The translations under genes were made by a program, and so were the position numbers. From Vulcanimicrobiota bacterium (GTDB taxonomy: Bacteria > Vulcanimicrobiota > Vulcanimicrobiia > Vulcanimicrobiales > Vulcanimicrobiaceae): DNA of 48,815 nucleotides. Of this stretch, positions 43,106 to 48,815 are shown piece after piece. A model generated the notes under the pieces. That model searched no databases. It had not been told where the DNA came from and saw nothing but the letters and a program-made list of their open reading frames with translations. Every line of letters begins with the position of its first letter. Position 1 is the stretch's first letter. Location of the stretch: positions 1-48,815 of the forward strand of contig PLCF01000015.1 in NCBI GenBank assembly GCA_003135555.1, given 5' to 3'.

Positions 43106-43635
43106 ACGGCAGCGCCGGCGGCATGAGCCCGGCTTTGATCAGCCTGGCGGTCGGACTGGTCGTCATCGTGCGGTTCTTGTTTCGCGAGCTGCGCGAACGC
43201 ACGGTGAAGGTCCGGACGCTGTGGATTCGCCCGGGGATCATCGCGCTGCTCACGGTCGGATTTGCGGTGGCGGCGTTCGCGCGCCCAAGCGTGAATCCAG
43301 GGCTGTTCGTTCTGATGCTGCTCGCCGGCGCGGCCGTGGGGGTCCTCACCGGGGTGCTGGTCCTGGGCTCGACGACGTTCGCGCCGGCCGGCATCGCGGG
43401 GGCGGTGCGGGTGCGCGGCAGCGTCGTCACCGTGATCGTCTGGATCGCGGCGCTCTCGTTGCGCTTGGCGGCGCGGTTCGTGGTGGGCGGAGCCGGCGCC
43501 GATCTGACGACGCAGTACGAGCTCAACGCGGGGTTGCTGGCGCTTCTCGCCGGGGCGTTCATTGTCGTGGCGCTGGGATTCCATCGCGCCATCGACCGGC
43601 TCGCGCCGGATGCTACGGTGGCGCGAACGCTCTAG
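43102..43635 (+). CDS. Membrane protein (CcdC/DUF1453-like)
   Basis: About 5 hydrophobic helices; ATGA overlap with the livF stop. Confidence 0.65.
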   Translation: MNGSAGGMSPALISLAVGLVVIVRFLFRELRERTVKVRTLWIRPGIIALLTVGFAVAAFARPSVNPGLFVLMLLAGAAVGVLTGVLVLGSTTFAPAGIAGAVRVRGSVVTVIVWIAALSLRLAARFVVGGAGADLTTQYELNAGLLALLAGAFIVVALGFHRAIDRLAPDATVARTL

Positions 43636-43838
43636 GCGTAGCCGAGCGCGTCGCCGGACAAGGCGATGTAGAGGTCGAGCAACTCGTCGAAGACCTGCCG
43701 GACGCGCGGGTCCGGGCTACGCCGGGCCATCACGCCGGCGGCACGCACCAGCTCGTCGATCCGCGGCAGCTTCTCGACGACGGGCTCGGGCGACGCGACG
43801 ATCGCGTCCCGTTCCTCGGTGATTCCGACCAGTGTCAT
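43632..43838 (-). CDS. Small helical protein, paralog B
   Basis: AGGAG SD; 68 aa ending VFDELLDLYIALSGDALGYA; similar to 43934-44125. Confidence 0.7.
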   Translation of the reverse strand: MTLVGITEERDAIVASPEPVVEKLPRIDELVRAAGVMARRSPDPRVRQVFDELLDLYIALSGDALGYA

Positions 43839-43880
43839 GGCTGGATGCTCCTGCTCTTGCGGCACACCGCCGTACCGCTT

Positions 43881-43907
43881 GTATCGGCAGCCCGCCCGAG
43901 AAGTTTA
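43881..43907 (-). promoter_or_regulatory. Sigma28 (FliA/SigD/WhiG)-type promoter
   Basis: Minus strand TAAA-N15-GCCGATAC. Confidence 0.7.
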
Positions 43908-43933
43908 TCGCCCGGTCCGGCGGCCAGCCCGGT

Positions 43934-44125
43934 CTACGTGCTCAGAATCGCGTCCGCGCTGAGCCGGACGTACAGATCGAGGACCTCGTCGTAGACGTCG
44001 CGGGCGCTCACGGCGACCGATGCGGCCCGGCGTAACAGGGCGTCGGCGCGTTCCAGGCGCTCCGCCGTGGGCCGGCTGGAGGCGGCAATCGCGTCGAGTT
44101 CGTCCGTGATCTGATCGAGGCTCAT
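43934..44125 (-). CDS. Small helical protein, paralog A
   Basis: GGAGGG SD; 63 aa ending VYDEVLDLYVRLSADAILST. Confidence 0.7.
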   Translation of the reverse strand: MSLDQITDELDAIAASSRPTAERLERADALLRRAASVAVSARDVYDEVLDLYVRLSADAILST

Positions 44126-44153
44126 GGGCGGCCCTCCGTGGTCCACTACTGCC

Positions 44154-44181
44154 GTATCGGCGCGCAGCCCACGGGATATTA
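44154..44181 (-). promoter_or_regulatory. Sigma28-type promoter
   Basis: Minus strand TAAT-N16-GCCGATAC. Confidence 0.55.
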
Positions 44182-44206: not shown

Positions 44207-44746
44207 TCAGGCCGGGGTCGTACCGTCGAAGAAGGGGCGCAGCTCGCCGACGAACGTGTCGGTGTTGTGGATGCTGCGCAGCACCACGATGATGGCGTCA
44301 CGGGGGAAGCCCGACTCCAACGTGACGGTGTAGCCGCAGAAGACGTCGCCGGTGTCGTCCGCGCCCCAGAACAAGAAGTTCTGGTCGCTCAGATACAACA
44401 GCCTGCGCATCAGCCCCGACTGATCTCGTGCCTTGCCGAGGTTGATGTAACCGCCGCGGTAGTGAGGATAGACGCGAAAGCCGATGGTGTTGCTCTTCGT
44501 GACGCTTACGATGACTTCGAGCGAGGCGGCGTTCTTCAAGCCGCTGGTAGCCGAGCCGAAGAAGTTGTACGGGTTCTTCGTGCTTTGCTGGAACGTGATG
44601 TTCACGTCGGACCGAGCACCCGCCGAATTGAGGACTTGGCGGACCTGTTCGCGTGTAGCGTCGCGCTCCGCGTCCTGCGCCTTCGCGGACGACGCGCAGG
44701 TGAGCACGGCAAACACGATCACAGCACAGAATCGTAGCAAGCGCAT
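44207..44746 (-). CDS. Hypothetical secreted protein
   Basis: Signal peptide MRLLRFCAVIVFAVLTCASSAKA-Q; globular body. Confidence 0.7.
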   Translation of the reverse strand: MRLLRFCAVIVFAVLTCASSAKAQDAERDATREQVRQVLNSAGARSDVNITFQQSTKNPYNFFGSATSGLKNAASLEVIVSVTKSNTIGFRVYPHYRGGYINLGKARDQSGLMRRLLYLSDQNFLFWGADDTGDVFCGYTVTLESGFPRDAIIVVLRSIHNTDTFVGELRPFFDGTTPA

Positions 44747-44882: not shown

Positions 44883-46490
44883 TCACGCCTTCCGCGCGAA
44901 GTCCGCGATCAGCGCGGGCGTCGCGGCGTCGAAGCCCACGACGTCGAGCATGCCGCCGTCGTTGGGGTCCGCGATGGTGAACCCGTTCGACGTCATGCCG
45001 ACCACGACGAGCTTCGCCGGAATGCCCATCCGCTCGCGGTAGCGCCGCAGCGCCTCGTCCGGGTGGATGGTGCCGGCCCACGTCTCCGAGTCCGTCATGA
45101 TGAGGAACAGGTCGACCGTGAGCCGCCGCTCGAGCGCGTAGAGCATCGGGAGCGCGCAGTCCGTTCCCATGAACGGCAGCGCGGCCGTGCGCTGCACGAC
45201 CGAGTCGACGCTTTCGGCCTTGCCGATCTCGAACGGCACGAAGTCGTCCGCGAACGCCATGACCCGCACCGCCTCCTCGGTGCGCACGTGCGTGAGCGCC
45301 ATCGCCGCCGCGCCGACGCGCGGCGTGATCCCCGGGATACCGGCGATCGTGCCGCTCGACATCGAGCCCGACACGTCGAGCCCGATCAGCGTGCGCGCAC
45401 CGGTCGGCTCGACGTTCTCGAACGCCAGCGCGAACGCCGCGTCGAGCGCGTCGACGACCGCCGGCACCGGCGTCCACGTCGCCGAGCCGCGCACGCCGCG
45501 TCCCGACTTGTAGGTCGTGAGCGCCGCGAGCAGCGCGATCGGGTGGATACGTGCCTTGCGCAGCGCCGTCCGATCCGTGATCCGCGCGATCACCGGTGCG
45601 GTCGCCTCGCCCTTGGGCGTGAGCAGACCGACCCGCGTGAGCGTCGCGAGGTTACGGATCAGGGCCGTCATCGGCAGTCCCGGGAGCAGCGCCTCCCAAA
45701 CACGCGGCTCCTTGAGCCACGCGCTCGGCAGCGCTTCACGCGGGAGCCCGGTCGCGCGCACCAGCTCCGCGCACGTTGCGGCGTCGGCGCCCTCCGACAC
45801 CTTGGCCGTTGCGTGCGCGCGCAGGAGCGACAGCGCCTGGAACTCCTCCGTCGGGACGTCGCCCTTCACGATCCACGCATAGAGCGCGGCGCGCTCGGCG
45901 TCCGCGGCGAGCGGGTGCGCGAGACGGAAGACGTCACGGTGCGTGAAGCCCTCGCGGTTCTGGTACTTGAGCGCCTGGTACGCGAGATCGCGGACCGGCT
46001 TCGCCTCGTACCAGCCACGCAGACCGCGGCGCAGGCCGCGGCCCCAGCCGCGGAACTGCTCGATGAACGAGCAGAACGTGAGCAGGTGCGAGCCCGTGCG
46101 GCACACGCGCTGCAGGCCCTCGCCCAGTGCGAAGCTGCGCGTCGCCTCGTCGCCGAAGCCGGCGCACGCGGCCAGCGCGAAAATCGCCGGCTGCACCTTC
46201 GGCGCGCGACCGCTCTCGGAGAGCTCGATCACGCGTGCGACGACCCGACGGCCGTCCTCGCGAATGGCGTCGACGAGGTTCACCGCGTTCTCCTTGGTGA
46301 GCCGGTCCTCGGTCGCGTAGTACGTACCCGATTCGGCACCGAGAATCAGAAAGCGGTCGACGCGCGCCCAGCGGTCGAGCGGGTAGACGTAGCCGCCGTT
46401 GTCGGCGCGCACCTGGGCGCGACCCGGCTGCGGCTGCGTCTGCAGCGTGCCCGCGGCGCGGCCGCGGAAGATCCGTGCGAGCATGTTCAT
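44883..46490 (-). CDS. rsr: Ro60 ortholog (TROVE + vWA domain RNA-binding protein)
   Basis: DNGGYV, RFLILGAESGTYY, RTGSHL, RGWGRGLRR, KYQNREGFTHRD, ALIRNL, ARIHP, LDVSGSM (MIDAS), GTDCALP, TDSETW, IADPND.GMLDVVGFD. Confidence 0.95.
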   Translation of the reverse strand: MNMLARIFRGRAAGTLQTQPQPGRAQVRADNGGYVYPLDRWARVDRFLILGAESGTYYATEDRLTKENAVNLVDAIREDGRRVVARVIELSESGRAPKVQPAIFALAACAGFGDEATRSFALGEGLQRVCRTGSHLLTFCSFIEQFRGWGRGLRRGLRGWYEAKPVRDLAYQALKYQNREGFTHRDVFRLAHPLAADAERAALYAWIVKGDVPTEEFQALSLLRAHATAKVSEGADAATCAELVRATGLPREALPSAWLKEPRVWEALLPGLPMTALIRNLATLTRVGLLTPKGEATAPVIARITDRTALRKARIHPIALLAALTTYKSGRGVRGSATWTPVPAVVDALDAAFALAFENVEPTGARTLIGLDVSGSMSSGTIAGIPGITPRVGAAAMALTHVRTEEAVRVMAFADDFVPFEIGKAESVDSVVQRTAALPFMGTDCALPMLYALERRLTVDLFLIMTDSETWAGTIHPDEALRRYRERMGIPAKLVVVGMTSNGFTIADPNDGGMLDVVGFDAATPALIADFARKA

Positions 46491-46543
46491 GTGGTGTCCC
46501 TCCCTTCGTGCGTGAGATCGAGGTGATGATGAATGCGAGCCGG

Positions 46544-46680
46544 AGCCCGCGGGCAAGTGATGTTCGAGGGTGGGCTTGCGCCCCGCGCTCTACCACTGAG
46601 CTACGTGCGATGCACGGCGGGAATCGAACCCGCGCCTCTCGTTTAGCAGACGATAACCTCGGACGTTCGGCCCGCAAGCC
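46544..46680 (-). ncRNA. yrlA: Y RNA, YrlA type (permuted tRNA-like domain)
   Basis: 5' GGCUUGCGGGC-CGAA pairs with 3' CUU-GCCCGCGGGCU (bulged-C Ro site). Internal T arm GCGGG-UUCGAUU-CCCGC, loop-closed acceptor-like stem CGUGC-AUC-GCACG, then D arm UA-GCUC-AGUGGUA-GAGC. Confidence 0.9.
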
Positions 46681-46683
46681 GAA

Positions 46684-46792
46684 ACCGTGGACGAGCGATT
46701 GTTCGAGGAGTGAGGCTCACCCGTAGCGGACTCGCCCCATGCGCTTTCGCGCGGTCGTGAGGAACGATAACCTCGAACGTCCGGCCCACGGC
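46684..46792 (-). ncRNA. Y RNA without tRNA-like domain (YrlB-like)
   Basis: 5' GCCGUGGGCCGGAC-GUUCGAGG-UUAUCG pairs with 3' CCUCGAAC...CUCGUCCACGGU; 5' segment nearly identical to the neighbouring YrlA; GAAA-capped hairpin. Confidence 0.8.
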
Positions 46793-46812
46793 GGCCGGCT
46801 CATGATTGTGAG

Positions 46813-46951
46813 GACTCGCAGACGAATGGTGGTGCGGGAGCGGGACGACACCTCGCGTCCCTCGCCGACATTGCGCGGCTTGCGCCGCACGCCGCCTTTT
46901 GGATTCGAACCAGTAGCTTCCAGAGAACCCGCACCGTCCGGCCCGCGAGCC
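46813..46951 (-). ncRNA. Third Y RNA with T-loop-like element
   Basis: 5' GGCUCGCGGGC-CGGAC-GGUGCGGG pairs with 3' CCCGCACC...UUC-GUCUGCGAGUC; contains UGG-UUCGAAU-CCA and a GCAA-capped hairpin; begins 4 nt after the rtcB stop. Confidence 0.75.
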
Positions 46952-46955
46952 GGGA

Positions 46956-48146
46956 TCAGCCCTTGATGCAGACCACCTGGCGGAGCGTGTGTACGATCCG
47001 TACCAGATCGTGCTGCGCCGCCATGACGTCGTCGATGTCCTTGTACGCGGACGGTGCCTCGTCGAGGACGCCCGCGTCCTTGCGGCATTCGACGCCGTGC
47101 GTCTCGCGCGCGAGATCCTTGAGCGTGAGCGTGCGCATCGCCTCGCCGCGGCTCATCCGGCGGCCGGCGCCGTGCGAGCACGACTCGAACGATTCCGGAT
47201 TGCCGAGACCGCGCACGACGAACGAGCGCGCGCCCATCGAGCCGGGGATGAAGCCGAGCTCGTCGAGGCCGGCGCGGACCGCACCCTTGCGCGTCACGTA
47301 CACGTCGGCACCGAAGTGCCGTTCGCGCGCGACGTAGTTGTGGTGGCAGTTCACGACGGTCTCGGCGCGCGCGAAGCGCGGCAGCTTGACCTTGCCGTCG
47401 CGCAGCGCCTCGAGCGCGTTCTCCATCATGATCTCGCGGTTGGTGCGAGCGTAGTCCTGCGCCCAGCCTACCGCGTCCACGTAGGCGTCGAACGCCGGCG
47501 TGTTCTCGGTGAGGTGGGCGAGGTCGCGATCGGCGATCGTGACGCCGGCGCGCTCGAGCTCCTCGTGCGCGCGCTCGATGTAGAACGAGCCGATGCGATT
47601 GCCCGCGCCGCGCGAGCCCGAGTGCAGGACGAGCCAGACGTCGCCCGCTTCGTCAAGGCAGACCTCGCAGAAGTGGTTGCCGCCGCCCATCGTGCCGAGC
47701 TGCTCGCGCACGTTGCGGGTCGAGACCTTCGGCGCGCGCTCGACCACGCGGTCGTAGCGCTCGCCGAGGTCGGCCTTCCACGCGCGCTCCGCCGCCGGCG
47801 TCGCATCGCGGTGAGCCGCCTTACCGACCGGCACCACGTGCTCGATCGCCTTGCGAATGCCGCGGAGGTCCGTCGGAAGGTCCTCGGCGCGCAGGGTGAG
47901 CTTCTGCGCGATCATGCCGCAGCCGATGTCGACGCCGACCGCGGCCGGAACGATCGCACCGATCGTCGGGATGACGCTGCCCACGGTCGCGCCGCGGCCC
48001 AAGTGGACGTCGGGCATCACCGCGACGTGCGAGTGCACGAACGGCAGCGAGGCCATGTTGGCGACCTGCTTGCGCGCGTTTTCGTCGAACTCGACGCCGT
48101 CGACCCACGCCTTGATCGGGTGGCCGGCGTTCTCGATCACTTCCAC
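46956..48146 (-). CDS. rtcB: RNA-splicing ligase RtcB
   Basis: MPDVHLG.GATVG, AVGVDIGCGM, LGTMGGGNHF, LHSGSRG, HHNY, RKGA, IPGSMG, SCSHGAGR, DEAPSAYKDI; AAGGAGG SD before the GTG at 48146. Confidence 0.96.
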   Translation of the reverse strand: MEVIENAGHPIKAWVDGVEFDENARKQVANMASLPFVHSHVAVMPDVHLGRGATVGSVIPTIGAIVPAAVGVDIGCGMIAQKLTLRAEDLPTDLRGIRKAIEHVVPVGKAAHRDATPAAERAWKADLGERYDRVVERAPKVSTRNVREQLGTMGGGNHFCEVCLDEAGDVWLVLHSGSRGAGNRIGSFYIERAHEELERAGVTIADRDLAHLTENTPAFDAYVDAVGWAQDYARTNREIMMENALEALRDGKVKLPRFARAETVVNCHHNYVARERHFGADVYVTRKGAVRAGLDELGFIPGSMGARSFVVRGLGNPESFESCSHGAGRRMSRGEAMRTLTLKDLARETHGVECRKDAGVLDEAPSAYKDIDDVMAAQHDLVRIVHTLRQVVCIKG

Positions 48147-48165
48147 GGTGATGCCCTCCTTTCGG

Positions 48166-48203
48166 AAAAATAAGAAGCGGGGTGAGCGCATCGCTCACCC
48201 CGC
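48166..48203 (-). terminator. Intrinsic terminator in the rtcB leader (attenuator)
   Basis: Perfect 12-bp stem GCGGGGTGAGCG/CGCTCACCCCGC followed on minus by UUCUUAUUUUU; lies between the promoter and the rtcB SD. Confidence 0.85.
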
Positions 48204-48232
48204 CTTCGGCGTTCGTGGTTTGCGCTCGAGTG

Positions 48233-48334
48233 TTAGGTTCGGCTCGCCCCGATCGGCGTGCACGCCGTCAGCGGCTTCCGCGAGGCGGAGCCGTGATTTC
48301 GATCGAGGCCGGAGACGTACGATGGTGTTTGCAT
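48233..48334 (-). CDS. Putative leader peptide of the rtcB operon (33 aa)
   Basis: MQTPSYVSGLDRNHGSASRKPLTACTPIGASRT*; starts ~10 nt after the predicted TSS and ends ~30 nt before the terminator. Confidence 0.5.
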   Translation of the reverse strand: MQTPSYVSGLDRNHGSASRKPLTACTPIGASRT

Positions 48335-48350
48335 GATGAACTCGGGAAGA

Positions 48351-48380
48351 AGCGTACGCGACGATTGCGACCTTTGTCAA
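48351..48380 (-). promoter_or_regulatory. Sigma70-type promoter for the rtcB-Y RNA-rsr operon
   Basis: Minus strand TTGACA (48380-48375)-N18-TACGCT (48356-48351). Confidence 0.65.
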
Positions 48381-48446
48381 GGTGTCGGCGCGCGTTTTTC
48401 GACTGGCGTCGATTGTGGAGATCGAAAAAGATTTTATGAGAACCGC

Positions 48447-48476
48447 TTGACAAGCAGCTAGACTTCGCTCTAGGAT
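48447..48476 (+). promoter_or_regulatory. Sigma70-type promoter for the tRNA array
   Basis: TTGACA (48447-48452)-N18-TAGGAT (48471-48476). Confidence 0.7.
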
Positions 48477-48485
48477 CGGTCCGTT

Positions 48486-48617
48486 ATGATGCAACGATCC
48501 GCATCGGCCCGCCCATCATCCAAAGGCCACTCGCTATGGTCTTTAGATTCGTATTGCCTTAGCGCGAATACGTTTGGGCGAGTCGCGGCGAAGCCGGAAG
48601 GCATCGTCGTATCGTAG
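48486..48617 (+). CDS. Putative leader peptide of the tRNA array (43 aa)
   Basis: MMQRSASARPSSKGHSLWSLDSYCLSANTFGRVAAKPEGIVVS*; ATG ~3 nt after the predicted TSS; many A/T-ending codons. Confidence 0.45.
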   Translation: MMQRSASARPSSKGHSLWSLDSYCLSANTFGRVAAKPEGIVVS

Positions 48618-48645
48618 CTGTCGCACCGGAGCTCTTGTAGGTTTA

Positions 48646-48685
48646 CGAGGGGATCGGCGCACAGCCGGTCCCCTCGGTCGTTTCC
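48646..48685 (+). terminator. Strong hairpin / weak terminator ahead of the first tRNA
   Basis: 13-bp stem CGAGGGGATCGGC / GCCGGTCCCCTCG (one G-U), loop GCACA, followed by GTCGTTTCC (poor U tract). Confidence 0.55.
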
Positions 48686-48686
48686 T

Positions 48687-48754
48687 GGGTCCGTGTCGTG
48701 GCGACGGGCGCGATTCCAACCCGCGCAGTGGGCGTTCGACTCGTCCCGGACCCG
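48687..48754 (+). tRNA. Atypical tRNA-Trp(CCA) with truncated D-arm
   Basis: Acceptor GGGTCCG/CGGACCC + G73; anticodon loop TT-CCA-AC; T arm GGGCG-TTCGACT-CGTCC; D arm only GTCG-TGG-CGAC; no encoded CCA end. Confidence 0.7.
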
Positions 48755-48757
48755 CAT

Positions 48758-48815
48758 GGTGGTCGAGGCCGAAGCATTCGAGGCGCTCGCCCGTGACGCG
48801 AGCCGAAGTGGGTGA
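48758..48815 (+). tRNA. Atypical tRNA-His(GTG), cut by the window edge
   Basis: G-1 + GTGGTCG; D stem GCC/GGC; anticodon arm CTCGC-CC GTG AC-GCGAG; T stem starts GTGGG-TGA; 3 nt after the Trp tRNA. Confidence 0.65.

Follow-up and report, generated by a model that had tools for sequence, protein, structure and literature searches.

The locus described here lies near the right-hand end of contig PLCF01000015.1, which belongs to a metagenome-assembled genome (MAG) of an uncultured member of Candidatus Eremiobacterota (WPS-2) from peat soil (3.57 Mb, 68% G+C, 84% complete). The stretch of DNA that was analysed, hereafter the window, is the first 48,815 nt of this 50,280-nt contig (contig C83 of the genome labelled G000). 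Between positions 44883 and 48815 the minus strand carries rsr, three Y-RNA-like modules and rtcB, and the plus strand carries a tRNA array that runs past the window; transcription of the left arm proceeds through rtcB, the three Y-like RNAs and rsr, and the right arm consists of the tRNA array. The locus joins an L-type tRNA array to a Ro60/Y-RNA/RtcB operon, each of a known kind, and each of the two arms is headed by a short open reading frame (ORF) and a strong hairpin (Table 1). An earlier note, drawn from the sequence alone, had proposed a bidirectional RNA repair and tRNA resupply locus with twin leader-peptide attenuators. All of the elements it listed were found at or near the positions it gave, and the order it assigned to the left arm (leader ORF, terminator, rtcB, three Y RNAs, rsr) was borne out by Pfam searches, a terminator scan and RNA folds.

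Table 1. Features of the rsr-rtcB-tRNA array locus, in window coordinates
Feature	Position (nt)	Strand	Description	Basis
rsr	44883..46490	-	Ro60 orthologue, 535 amino acids (aa)	Pfam TROVE and vWA_Ro60; match to D. radiodurans Rsr, PDB 2nvo
Y-RNA-like module 3	46545..46676	-	YrlA-like	tRNA-like T arm, stem and D arm within long closing stem
Y-RNA-like module 2	46685..46791	-		repeated 5' GGGCCGGACG..GAGGTTATC and 3' CCTCGAACA motifs pairing into closing stem
Y-RNA-like module 1	46815..46949	-	poorer alignment	shared 5' motif; two ends form closing stem
rtcB	46956..48146	-	RNA ligase; likely GTG start at 48146 behind AGGAGG	Pfam RtcB
Left terminator	48165..48205	-	14-bp G+C-rich hairpin (48205-48175), then U tract	terminator scan
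Left candidate antiterminator, 5' strand	48208..48222	-	complementary to terminator 5' arm	conserved complementarity
Left leader ORF	48233..48334	-	33 aa (MQTPSYV...), without Shine-Dalgarno sequence; ATG 16 nt after -10	conserved ORF
Left promoter	48351..48380	-	TTGACA (48380-48375), N18, TACGCT (48356-48351)	read from sequence
Right promoter	48447..48476	+	TTGACA-N18-TAGGAT; A/T-rich stretch upstream	promoter scan
Right leader ORF	48486..48617	+	43 aa (MMQRSAS...), leaderless or nearly so; ATG 9 nt after -10	conserved ORF
Right leader helix P1	48486-48498 with 48603-48615	+		consensus pairing
Right leader helix P2	48525-48541	+		covariation
Right leader helix P3	48554-48581	+		covariation
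Right candidate antiterminator, 5' strand	48623..48639	+	17 nt	pairs with 48644-48660, including terminator 5' arm
Right terminator-like hairpin	48646..48676	+	13 bp, then U-poor tail GUCGUUUCCU	conserved hairpin
First array tRNA	48687..48755	+	atypical tRNA-Trp(CCA), 69 nt, 3-bp D stem	ARAGORN
Second array tRNA	48757..48815	+	His-like (GTG anticodon loop by eye), start at about 48757	position and by-eye reading

The product of rsr carries the domains that define Ro60/Rsr proteins, namely a TROVE domain (PF05731, E-value 2e-38) and the Ro60 vWA domain (PF25045, E-value 1e-62), and it matches the D. radiodurans Rsr structure over its full length (residues 23-533, E-value 7e-125). The rtcB gene, which was searched as 46956-48155 with the start codon read from the sequence, gave a full-length match to PF01139 (408.6 bits against a cut-off of 27, E-value 5e-122, profile positions 1-426), an assignment made by profile; matches to solved RtcB structures in the PDB had E-values of 3e-35 to 1e-24. 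Every Y-like module opens with GGGCCGGACG..G(A/C)GGTT(A/C)T, and the 3' strand pairs back with this motif to close a multi-branched RNA. Module 3, which sits 55 nt upstream of the rsr start, has the YrlA-type layout of an RNA that adjoins rsr and encloses a tRNA-like domain within a long end-stem. Its match to the YrlA family RF02553 is partial (37.3 bits, E-value 5.5e-6, short of the gathering score of 69) and is limited to model positions 30-81, the tRNA-like part. The fold of this module was kept in all six aligned loci, with 93% of alignment cells paired and six pairs showing double (compensatory) changes; the closing helices were 100% paired and the T-arm-like and D-arm-like helices were retained in each of the six. 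An Rfam scan of the window at gathering scores gave no hits, and a search of 46400-48815 at E-values up to 10 yielded the partial YrlA match, one sub-threshold tRNA and three matches at chance level, with no T-box or riboswitch. As far as the sequence can tell, "three Y RNAs" is a fair description, though none of them reaches the Rfam threshold.

Within the window ARAGORN reported one tRNA, the tRNA-Trp. The rightward continuation of the array anticipated by the earlier note is present on the extended contig, where 16 tRNAs were found by ARAGORN between 48687 and 50222, all on the plus strand and within 1.54 kb; the partly read His-like tRNA, most of which falls by position in a stretch of N (48817-48910), is additional. 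The contig ends inside the array, 58 nt past the last of these tRNAs, and relatives carry 21-28 tRNAs; the rest of the G000 array was not found in the assembly by contig-end overlap or by BLAST with the distal half of a relative's array. A tRNA-Trp stands first in all seven arrays of the genus in which the start is visible and a tRNA-His follows it in five of these, and this tRNA-Trp is absent from the Rfam tRNA hits at gathering score for the window and for the loci of two relatives (L020 and L021). The array had also been described as made of atypical tRNAs. This is apt for the first member but not for the array at large, since most of the array tRNAs of L020 and L021 are ordinary in Rfam (about 30-69 bits); across seven loci from the genus and from other phyla, all 133 Rfam hits at gathering score were tRNAs (about 30-72 bits). 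Array tRNAs are 55-82% identical to the housekeeping tRNAs with the same anticodon, and CCA is encoded in 13 of the 16. In relatives only, an HNH gene is found at the array (L020:13552-14085 and L023:7567-8100, matching HNH_5 and HNH); past the array come this HNH endonuclease and then a SpoIIE/CHASE3 phosphatase, and some arrays enclose a DUF6847 gene. The tRNAs are supernumerary and their distribution is patchy, the locus being present in about half of the genus genomes, many of which are incomplete assemblies. Because it is long, patchy, supernumerary and HNH-associated, the array fits the L-array as set out in the available text of PMC8421152, and its features are those of the L-type arrays, sets of spare tRNAs that have spread horizontally.

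Some details of the arrays are recorded here as separate observations. Past the window, at 49917-49991 of the contig (L001:3118-3192), an array tRNA carries an amber-reading anticodon, CTA; it occupies the place held in relatives by a tRNA-Lys(CTT) after Met and Pro, and is either a decayed copy or a potential suppressor. The anticodons ACG and CCG (Arg) and GCT (Ser) occur in the array only and not among the 39 other tRNAs of the 84%-complete G000, which may reflect incompleteness of the MAG. The arrays of two relatives enclose a 152-aa DUF6847 gene that shares the strand of the tRNAs (L021:8913-9371 and L022:9899-10357, both on the minus strand).

Judged from their sequence, the two promoters are of the sigma-70 type and would fire in opposite directions. 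The earlier note had described them as back-to-back TTGACA-N18 promoters; both are present, and both -35 boxes are invariant in all eight aligned loci. The right promoter agrees with the consensus at 10 of 12 positions (one site found, compared with 0.3 expected) and is kept in 16 leaders of the genus and in two more distant lineages, and the -10-like hexamers of the left promoter read, by eye, TACGCT, TAGGCT, TAGTCT or TAAGCT with spacers of 16-18 nt. RtcR was found in none of 44 genus genomes and sigma-54 (Sigma54_DBD) in three of the 44, G000 not being among them, while RtcA (RTC domain) was not found in the window's own genome (84% complete), the sole genome searched for it; the E. coli controls were positive for these searches. 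The RtcR, sigma-54 and rtcA that characterize an RtcR/sigma-54-controlled rtc operon are thus not found together here, in agreement with the earlier note, which had seen no sign of such control. The anatomy of the locus, its conservation, the absence of RtcR and the near-absence of sigma-54 in the genus are established by this analysis.

The left leader ORF is kept in 20 of 20 left leaders, with 33-34 aa in 18 of them and 21 aa in the other two, which carry a 36-nt in-frame deletion; this deletion and a number of 3-nt insertions are the only length changes, all of them multiples of three. The terminator that follows is paired in all 14 aligned leaders (minimum free energy -27.4 kcal/mol) and is essentially invariant apart from a compensatory variant at one additional locus. 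A candidate antiterminator begins about 10 nt after the stop codon of the ORF. Over the 14 leaders, 87.5% of its cells are paired, compared with 24-55% in slid controls, and its one compensatory pair is carried by the window itself. RNAalifold gave no consensus fold of the left leader beyond the terminator; folds of single sequences showed some hairpins. In loci without rtcB the left leader and its terminator directly precede the Y RNAs, and the left unit therefore appears to govern the whole left operon.

On the tRNA side, a leader ORF of 41-46 aa is found in 18 of 18 distinct loci, among them representatives of another genus and of a lineage whose rsr is 74% identical. Its ATG lies 6-10 nt after the -10 box across the 18 loci, and ORF lengths of 123, 126, 129 and 135 nt preserve the frame throughout. 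The right leader is also structured as RNA. In the long-range helix P1 the start region pairs with the region just before the stop codon, and over the whole structure 93.1% of cells are paired (30-47% in slid controls), with 11 pairs changed on both sides, eight of them in P2 and P3; among 500 shuffles none reached the observed covariation score and four reached the observed count of 11 pairs. The candidate antiterminator begins 5 nt after the stop codon. It is paired in 95.1% of cells over 16 leaders, compared with 31-56% in slid controls, contains one covarying pair (G-C to A-U, in five sequences) and has a predicted energy in the window of -16.7 kcal/mol, compared with -27.8 kcal/mol for the terminator hairpin, which is itself 100% paired in the 16 leaders. 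The core of this hairpin, followed by a run of T's, was found in another genus at a locus without tRNAs or any match to the rest of the leader, and its occurrence outside the leader/tRNA context is consistent with a terminator role. A repeat dispersed through the genome was considered as an explanation for the hairpins and was ruled out, as G000 holds one copy of each full hairpin. When the right leader was searched for with a covariance model, a single copy was found in the window's genome and, among 151 genomes of the phylum, strong matches in the genus only. Beyond these, one weak full-length match lay at a tRNA array of a different genus in the family, and two further weak matches, of about 90-100 nt, lay at loci without tRNAs; the one of these two that was inspected covers the hairpin only. 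This restricted distribution indicates that the right leader is not a widespread riboswitch class.

Taken together, these elements suggest how the two arms could be switched. Each transcript would open with a short ORF (without a Shine-Dalgarno sequence or leaderless), followed by a conserved segment and a strong terminator hairpin, and the conserved segment would act as an antiterminator by pairing with the 5' arm of the terminator. A ribosome that keeps pace with RNA polymerase would reach the stop codon and cover the antiterminator strand, so that the terminator forms and the arm is off. Where ribosomes fall behind or stall, as they might after cleavage or depletion of tRNAs or under inhibition of elongation, the antiterminator would form first and transcription would read through, and the RNA repair functions (RtcB and the Ro60/Y ribonucleoprotein) would be made together with backup tRNAs. 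We infer translation of the leader ORFs and conditional termination, as well as the inducing signal. Conditional termination in the leaders, by whatever mechanism, is probable. Its mediation by ribosomes is a narrower proposal to which we assign about an even chance, sensing of the ribosome by such a mechanism being plausible on the grounds of sequence; the reading of the whole locus as an accessory island for responding to damaged translation, with ribosome-mediated attenuation of both arms, is likewise evenly balanced.

The arrangement that defines an attenuator, a short ORF upstream of an intrinsic terminator in the 5' leader, is present in both arms (20 of 20 left and 18 of 18 right leaders), so that the leader ORFs and hairpins pointed out in the earlier note are conserved features, with hairpins paired in all leaders. 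The note had placed the end of each leader ORF about 30 nt before its hairpin, and the measured gap from stop codon to stem is 27 nt on the left and 28 nt on the right. Both leaders show conserved complementarity in the candidate antiterminator, above that of slid controls (at most 56%), but with only one covarying pair each. Translation of the ORFs is supported in both leaders by a conserved ATG at or near the 5' end of the transcript, a conserved stop position and insertions or deletions in multiples of three, and the G+C content at third codon positions (GC3) in the ORF frame is 0.70 in the right and 0.74 in the left leader, compared with 0.56-0.57 at codon positions 1 and 2.

A number of observations weigh against ribosome-mediated attenuation. 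Excess third-position variation was sought in both ORFs and not found, and the peptides are not under purifying selection; neither a regulatory codon run nor an arrest motif was seen in the leader peptides, which diverge freely. Open frames are cheap at this G+C content, 13 of the 16 right leaders and all 14 left leaders being open in frame +3 as well, and the pairing of the start with the stop region in P1 could conserve both codons of the right leader without translation. The antiterminator helices are mostly invariant, so that the covariation in them is thin, and in the window the left antiterminator is weak (-10.6 kcal/mol compared with -27.4 kcal/mol for its terminator). The right hairpin has a poor U tract in the window, the tails in relatives being richer in U, and one lineage (G011) runs rtcB from the same promoter without a leader or terminator. 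In addition, the leader loci were chosen by exact hairpin motifs, which places leaders with diverged hairpins outside the sample. Among 20 sequencing runs listed as containing the locus, none is registered as RNA. Two lines of reasoning were dropped in the course of the analysis: the open frame as evidence of translation, since the control showed that other frames are often open too, and an enrichment of Asp, Asn, His and Tyr codons in the leaders, since their frequency by eye is about that of ordinary proteins. With other frames so often open, the case for translation rests on the conserved ATG and stop, the frame-preserving length changes and GC3.

The two leaders, called "twin" attenuators in the earlier note, are both conserved in the genus, but they are not an obligatory pair: rtcB of G011 lacks a leader, and in another genus a leader and array stand alone, with no rsr or rtcB within 1.5 kb. 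The right arm of G011 retains the ORF and hairpin, followed by a single tRNA and HNH, and this layout indicates that the two leaders are separable modules. Of the earlier interpretation as a whole, the continuation of the array, the conservation of the layout, the missing RtcR and RtcA and the conservation of ORFs, hairpins and complementary segments speak for it, while the unconserved peptides and the optional nature of the twin design do not.

If the leaders are not translated, they could be RNA sensors that work like a riboswitch or through binding of a tRNA, a fragment of one, or a protein (Rsr, for example), in which P1-P3 set the choice between antiterminator and terminator and the ORFs are incidental. 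The clear covariation of P2 and P3 (eight pairs changed on both sides) would be expected of such sensors, the start/stop pairing in P1 would explain why both codons are conserved, and the lack of conservation in the peptides and the openness of other frames would come as no surprise. Incidental ORFs would not be expected to undergo only frame-preserving length changes in both leaders, or to show raised GC3 in the ORF frame of both. Moreover, no Rfam family, T-box included, matches the leaders even at E-values up to 10, the right-leader model occurs in one copy per genome with its strong matches limited to the genus, unlike a typical riboswitch class, and the left leader lacks an RNAalifold consensus fold beyond its terminator. 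Taking both sides into consideration, RNA sensors of this kind are unlikely.

Control could also be exerted at the two promoters by a repressor or activator encoded elsewhere, similar to TrcR, with the hairpins serving as constitutive partial terminators, processing sites or stabilisers. According to the available text of PMC10272220, TrcR in Anabaena acts at the -10 box or transcription start site (TSS) to repress the array as well as its HNH gene and rtcB; in the present loci both promoter cores are strongly conserved, and one lineage has rtcB behind the same promoter without the leader. However, the cyanobacterial TrcR repeat motif had no match in the window at up to two mismatches (no search for a TrcR homologue was made), the region separating the two -35 boxes is very variable in length and sequence (about 20 to more than 230 alignment columns), and a comparison of the flanks in relatives showed no regulator gene conserved beside the island. 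A promoter-bound regulator would also leave unexplained why the spacing from the ORF stop to the complementary segment and on to the terminator is conserved, and we consider this explanation improbable. That the leader transcripts are themselves end products, two small RNAs or small proteins that end at their own terminators while the downstream genes depend on basal read-through, is very unlikely: both units are complete (promoter, ORF or structured RNA, strong hairpin) and the right-leader RNA is highly structured, but the peptides are unconserved, and there is no room for separate downstream promoters, since 10 nt separate the right hairpin from the first tRNA and about 10 nt separate the left U tract from the ribosome-binding site of rtcB.

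Analysis of related genomes showed that rsr is present in 12 of 24 sampled genomes of the genus and in none of 16 genomes that represent the order and class outside this family. The 635-nt intergenic stretch was matched in 24 of 43 genus genomes. In nine of these a single piece spans 85% or more of it, and several of the others match over only about 30-40 nt of the left-arm leader/terminator stretch. Seven of the 13 rsr regions that were fetched have the array beside rsr (21, 24, 23, 25, 23 and 15 tRNAs, and 7 at a contig end), and five of these seven have rtcB, intact or split by an intein, placed between rsr and the tRNAs, rtcB being missing or a remnant in the other two. The other six regions comprise four whose contigs, 3.6-12.3 kb long, stop at rtcB or close to it (the 12.3-kb contig was examined over 8 kb), one degraded rsr and one, that of G011, with a single tRNA. 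The rsr-side flank, which consists of ABC-transporter genes, is syntenic in seven of ten loci compared, pointing to one conserved chromosomal site. The layout around rtcB and rsr that the earlier note had singled out thus recurs in relatives, as regards both the array and the intergenic DNA.

One relative (G015) shows two further peculiarities. Its rtcB is interrupted in frame by a 322-aa intein (L020:9586-10551, minus strand; splicing domain E-value 1e-16, weak HNH_3 match), and the genome carries the whole locus twice (L020 on contig C20 and L026 on contig C8). The second copy of rsr matches in two overlapping pieces, which suggests that it is frameshifted, and the duplication could stem from two strains in one bin.

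A wider survey covered the 80 best Rsr relatives, one genome per species; these are the nearest relatives, which may form one array-linked clade, and the counts stand without a matched control gene. Among these 80 loci, 31 have at least 5 tRNAs within 10 kb and 24 have at least 10; 25 of the 31 are among the 69 loci that are not from Eremiobacterota, and these 25 lie in or beside tRNA arrays. The hosts of array-linked rsr include Kofleriaceae, Haliangiales, Polyangia and other Myxococcota, Gaiellaceae and other Actinomycetota, Gemmatimonadaceae and Armatimonadota. In the 21 loci of other phyla that were tabulated, rsr is inside a co-directional array in 17 and at one end of it in four. A broader reading would be that Ro60/Y-RNA particles and spare-tRNA arrays form one widespread unit in at least five phyla, to which the Eremiobacterota added two leaderless-ORF attenuators that read ribosome progress directly; we put this forward only tentatively, as it seems doubtful at present.

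Sequences upstream of the arrays in other phyla were also compared. In three Kofleriaceae loci (L078, L088 and L098), the first array tRNA is preceded, at a distance of about 300 nt, by a leader-like unit. Two of these units have a 53-54-aa ORF ending in ..PGGRAP(L/F)(V/A), and the third shares the conserved 3' region, with an ORF seen by eye only; in all three, a conserved hairpin that resembles a terminator and has a U tract follows about 30 nt downstream of the ORF. In the Kofleriaceae ORF the final codons hold GGCTCC, which is complementary to the 5' arm of the hairpin, and the arrangement resembles the leader logic proposed for the window. These small-ORF and terminator units suggest that the leader logic may recur. 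Four loci of Gaiellaceae and Actinomycetota (L114, L118, L124 and L128) have a conserved non-coding stretch about 400 nt upstream of the arrays; it opens with a terminator-like hairpin, and scans of two of these loci gave no Rfam hit at gathering score. Behind rsr in L114 come three tRNA hits and, on the strand of the array, a distant rtcB homologue. In two Myxococcota loci (L081 and L090), a conserved inverted repeat of the type TGGATT..CAATCCA lies about 200 nt upstream of the arrays and resembles a repressor operator. Different lineages may therefore control their arrays differently.

Like the Salmonella rsr-yrlBA-rtcBA operon, as described in the available text of PMC7790460, PMC10159003 and PMC4201824, the left arm combines a Ro60 orthologue, Y RNAs that include the tRNA-like YrlA type and RtcB in one transcription unit with a presumed link to tRNA damage. 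Unlike the Salmonella operon, which is controlled by RtcR and sigma-54, it has the order rtcB, Y RNAs, rsr, RtcA was not found in its own genome, a sigma-70-like promoter is followed by a leader ORF and terminator, and the operon is paired with a tRNA array. The right arm resembles the cyanobacterial L-array (the Anabaena trn operon), for which the accessible text reports long, patchy, supernumerary tRNAs and an HNH gene at the array (PMC8421152), as well as a nearby, co-regulated rtcB at some arrays and a proposed role in translational stress (PMC8421152, PMC10272220). In that system the L-array and rtcB are, as far as these texts go, co-induced by translation inhibitors (PMC8421152), and their joint induction runs through the TrcR repressor (PMC10272220). 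While the cyanobacterial system relies on a ribbon-helix-helix repressor acting on repeats at the -10 box or TSS, the present locus has leader ORF and terminator units and belongs to a different phylum. The terms "Ro60", "Rsr" and "Y RNA" do not appear in the main text of PMC8421152.

Dense tRNA arrays in which an HNH endonuclease is the commonest companion gene have been described in mycobacteria and their phages, and some jumbo phages carry many tRNAs together with RtcB and a TROVE protein (PMC5966550, PMC4758250 and PMC7824862, in their available text); a tRNA array unit is defined in the available text of PMC4758250 as at least 20 tRNA genes at two or more per kb. Those gene sets are carried by phages or plasmids, and the portions of text at hand describe no shared operon design, whereas the locus reported here occupies one conserved chromosomal site. 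The available text of two tRNA array surveys contains none of the terms "RtcB", "TROVE" and "Ro60", and a 2014 survey of Y RNAs, according to its accessible text, discarded candidates that overlapped tandem tRNA genes.

Ribosome-mediated attenuation as proposed here has counterparts of its own. Leader-peptide attenuators, whether of the trp/his type or of the antibiotic-responsive, ribosome-mediated type, consist of a short ORF, a segment that pairs with the 5' arm of the terminator and an intrinsic terminator. The present leaders resemble them in this order of elements and in a stop codon so near the candidate antiterminator strand that a ribosome terminating there could cover it, but differ in having no regulatory codon cluster or conserved arrest peptide, in ORFs that are leaderless or without a Shine-Dalgarno sequence, and in targets that are non-coding RNA genes (tRNAs and Y RNAs). 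In the literature searched, from which subscription-only papers were excluded, no description was found of a link between Ro60, Rsr or Y RNAs and tRNA arrays, or of leader-peptide attenuation of tRNA operons in this layout; the predicted design of the two small-ORF/antiterminator/terminator units is likewise undescribed there for either system. The earlier note had considered the combined architecture to be undescribed. As regards the Ro60/Y-RNA link this agrees with the literature searched, but the neighbourhood and co-regulation of array and rtcB had been published for cyanobacteria (PMC8421152 and PMC10272220, in their available text).

The locus ties together, in one place, the role of bacterial Ro60/Y ribonucleoproteins, the reason for silent arrays of spare tRNAs and the switching of RNA repair without RtcR. 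If the leaders work as proposed, they would be compact, protein-free sensors of translation health, and one physical signal, ribosomes falling behind RNA polymerase, would turn on RNA ligation, Ro60 quality control and replacement tRNAs, which would represent a new class of general translation-capacity sensor with no protein regulator. The link between rsr and arrays across phyla suggests that Ro60 may have the job of servicing or protecting array tRNAs, perhaps against tRNA-cleaving toxins or against phage and defence nucleases.

Among other genes near the left arm are two paralogous small ORFs of 77 and 70 aa without a Pfam match (43632-43865 and 43934-44146, both on the minus strand); the stretch that holds them, 43610-44180, has no BLASTN alignment in any relative compared. 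About 100 nt downstream of rsr and on the same strand, 44207-44746 encodes a 179-aa protein that has only a weak DUF4148 match and an apparent N-terminal hydrophobic segment, read by eye, that is similar to a signal peptide. The position of this gene is kept in relatives, and it may form part of the left operon.

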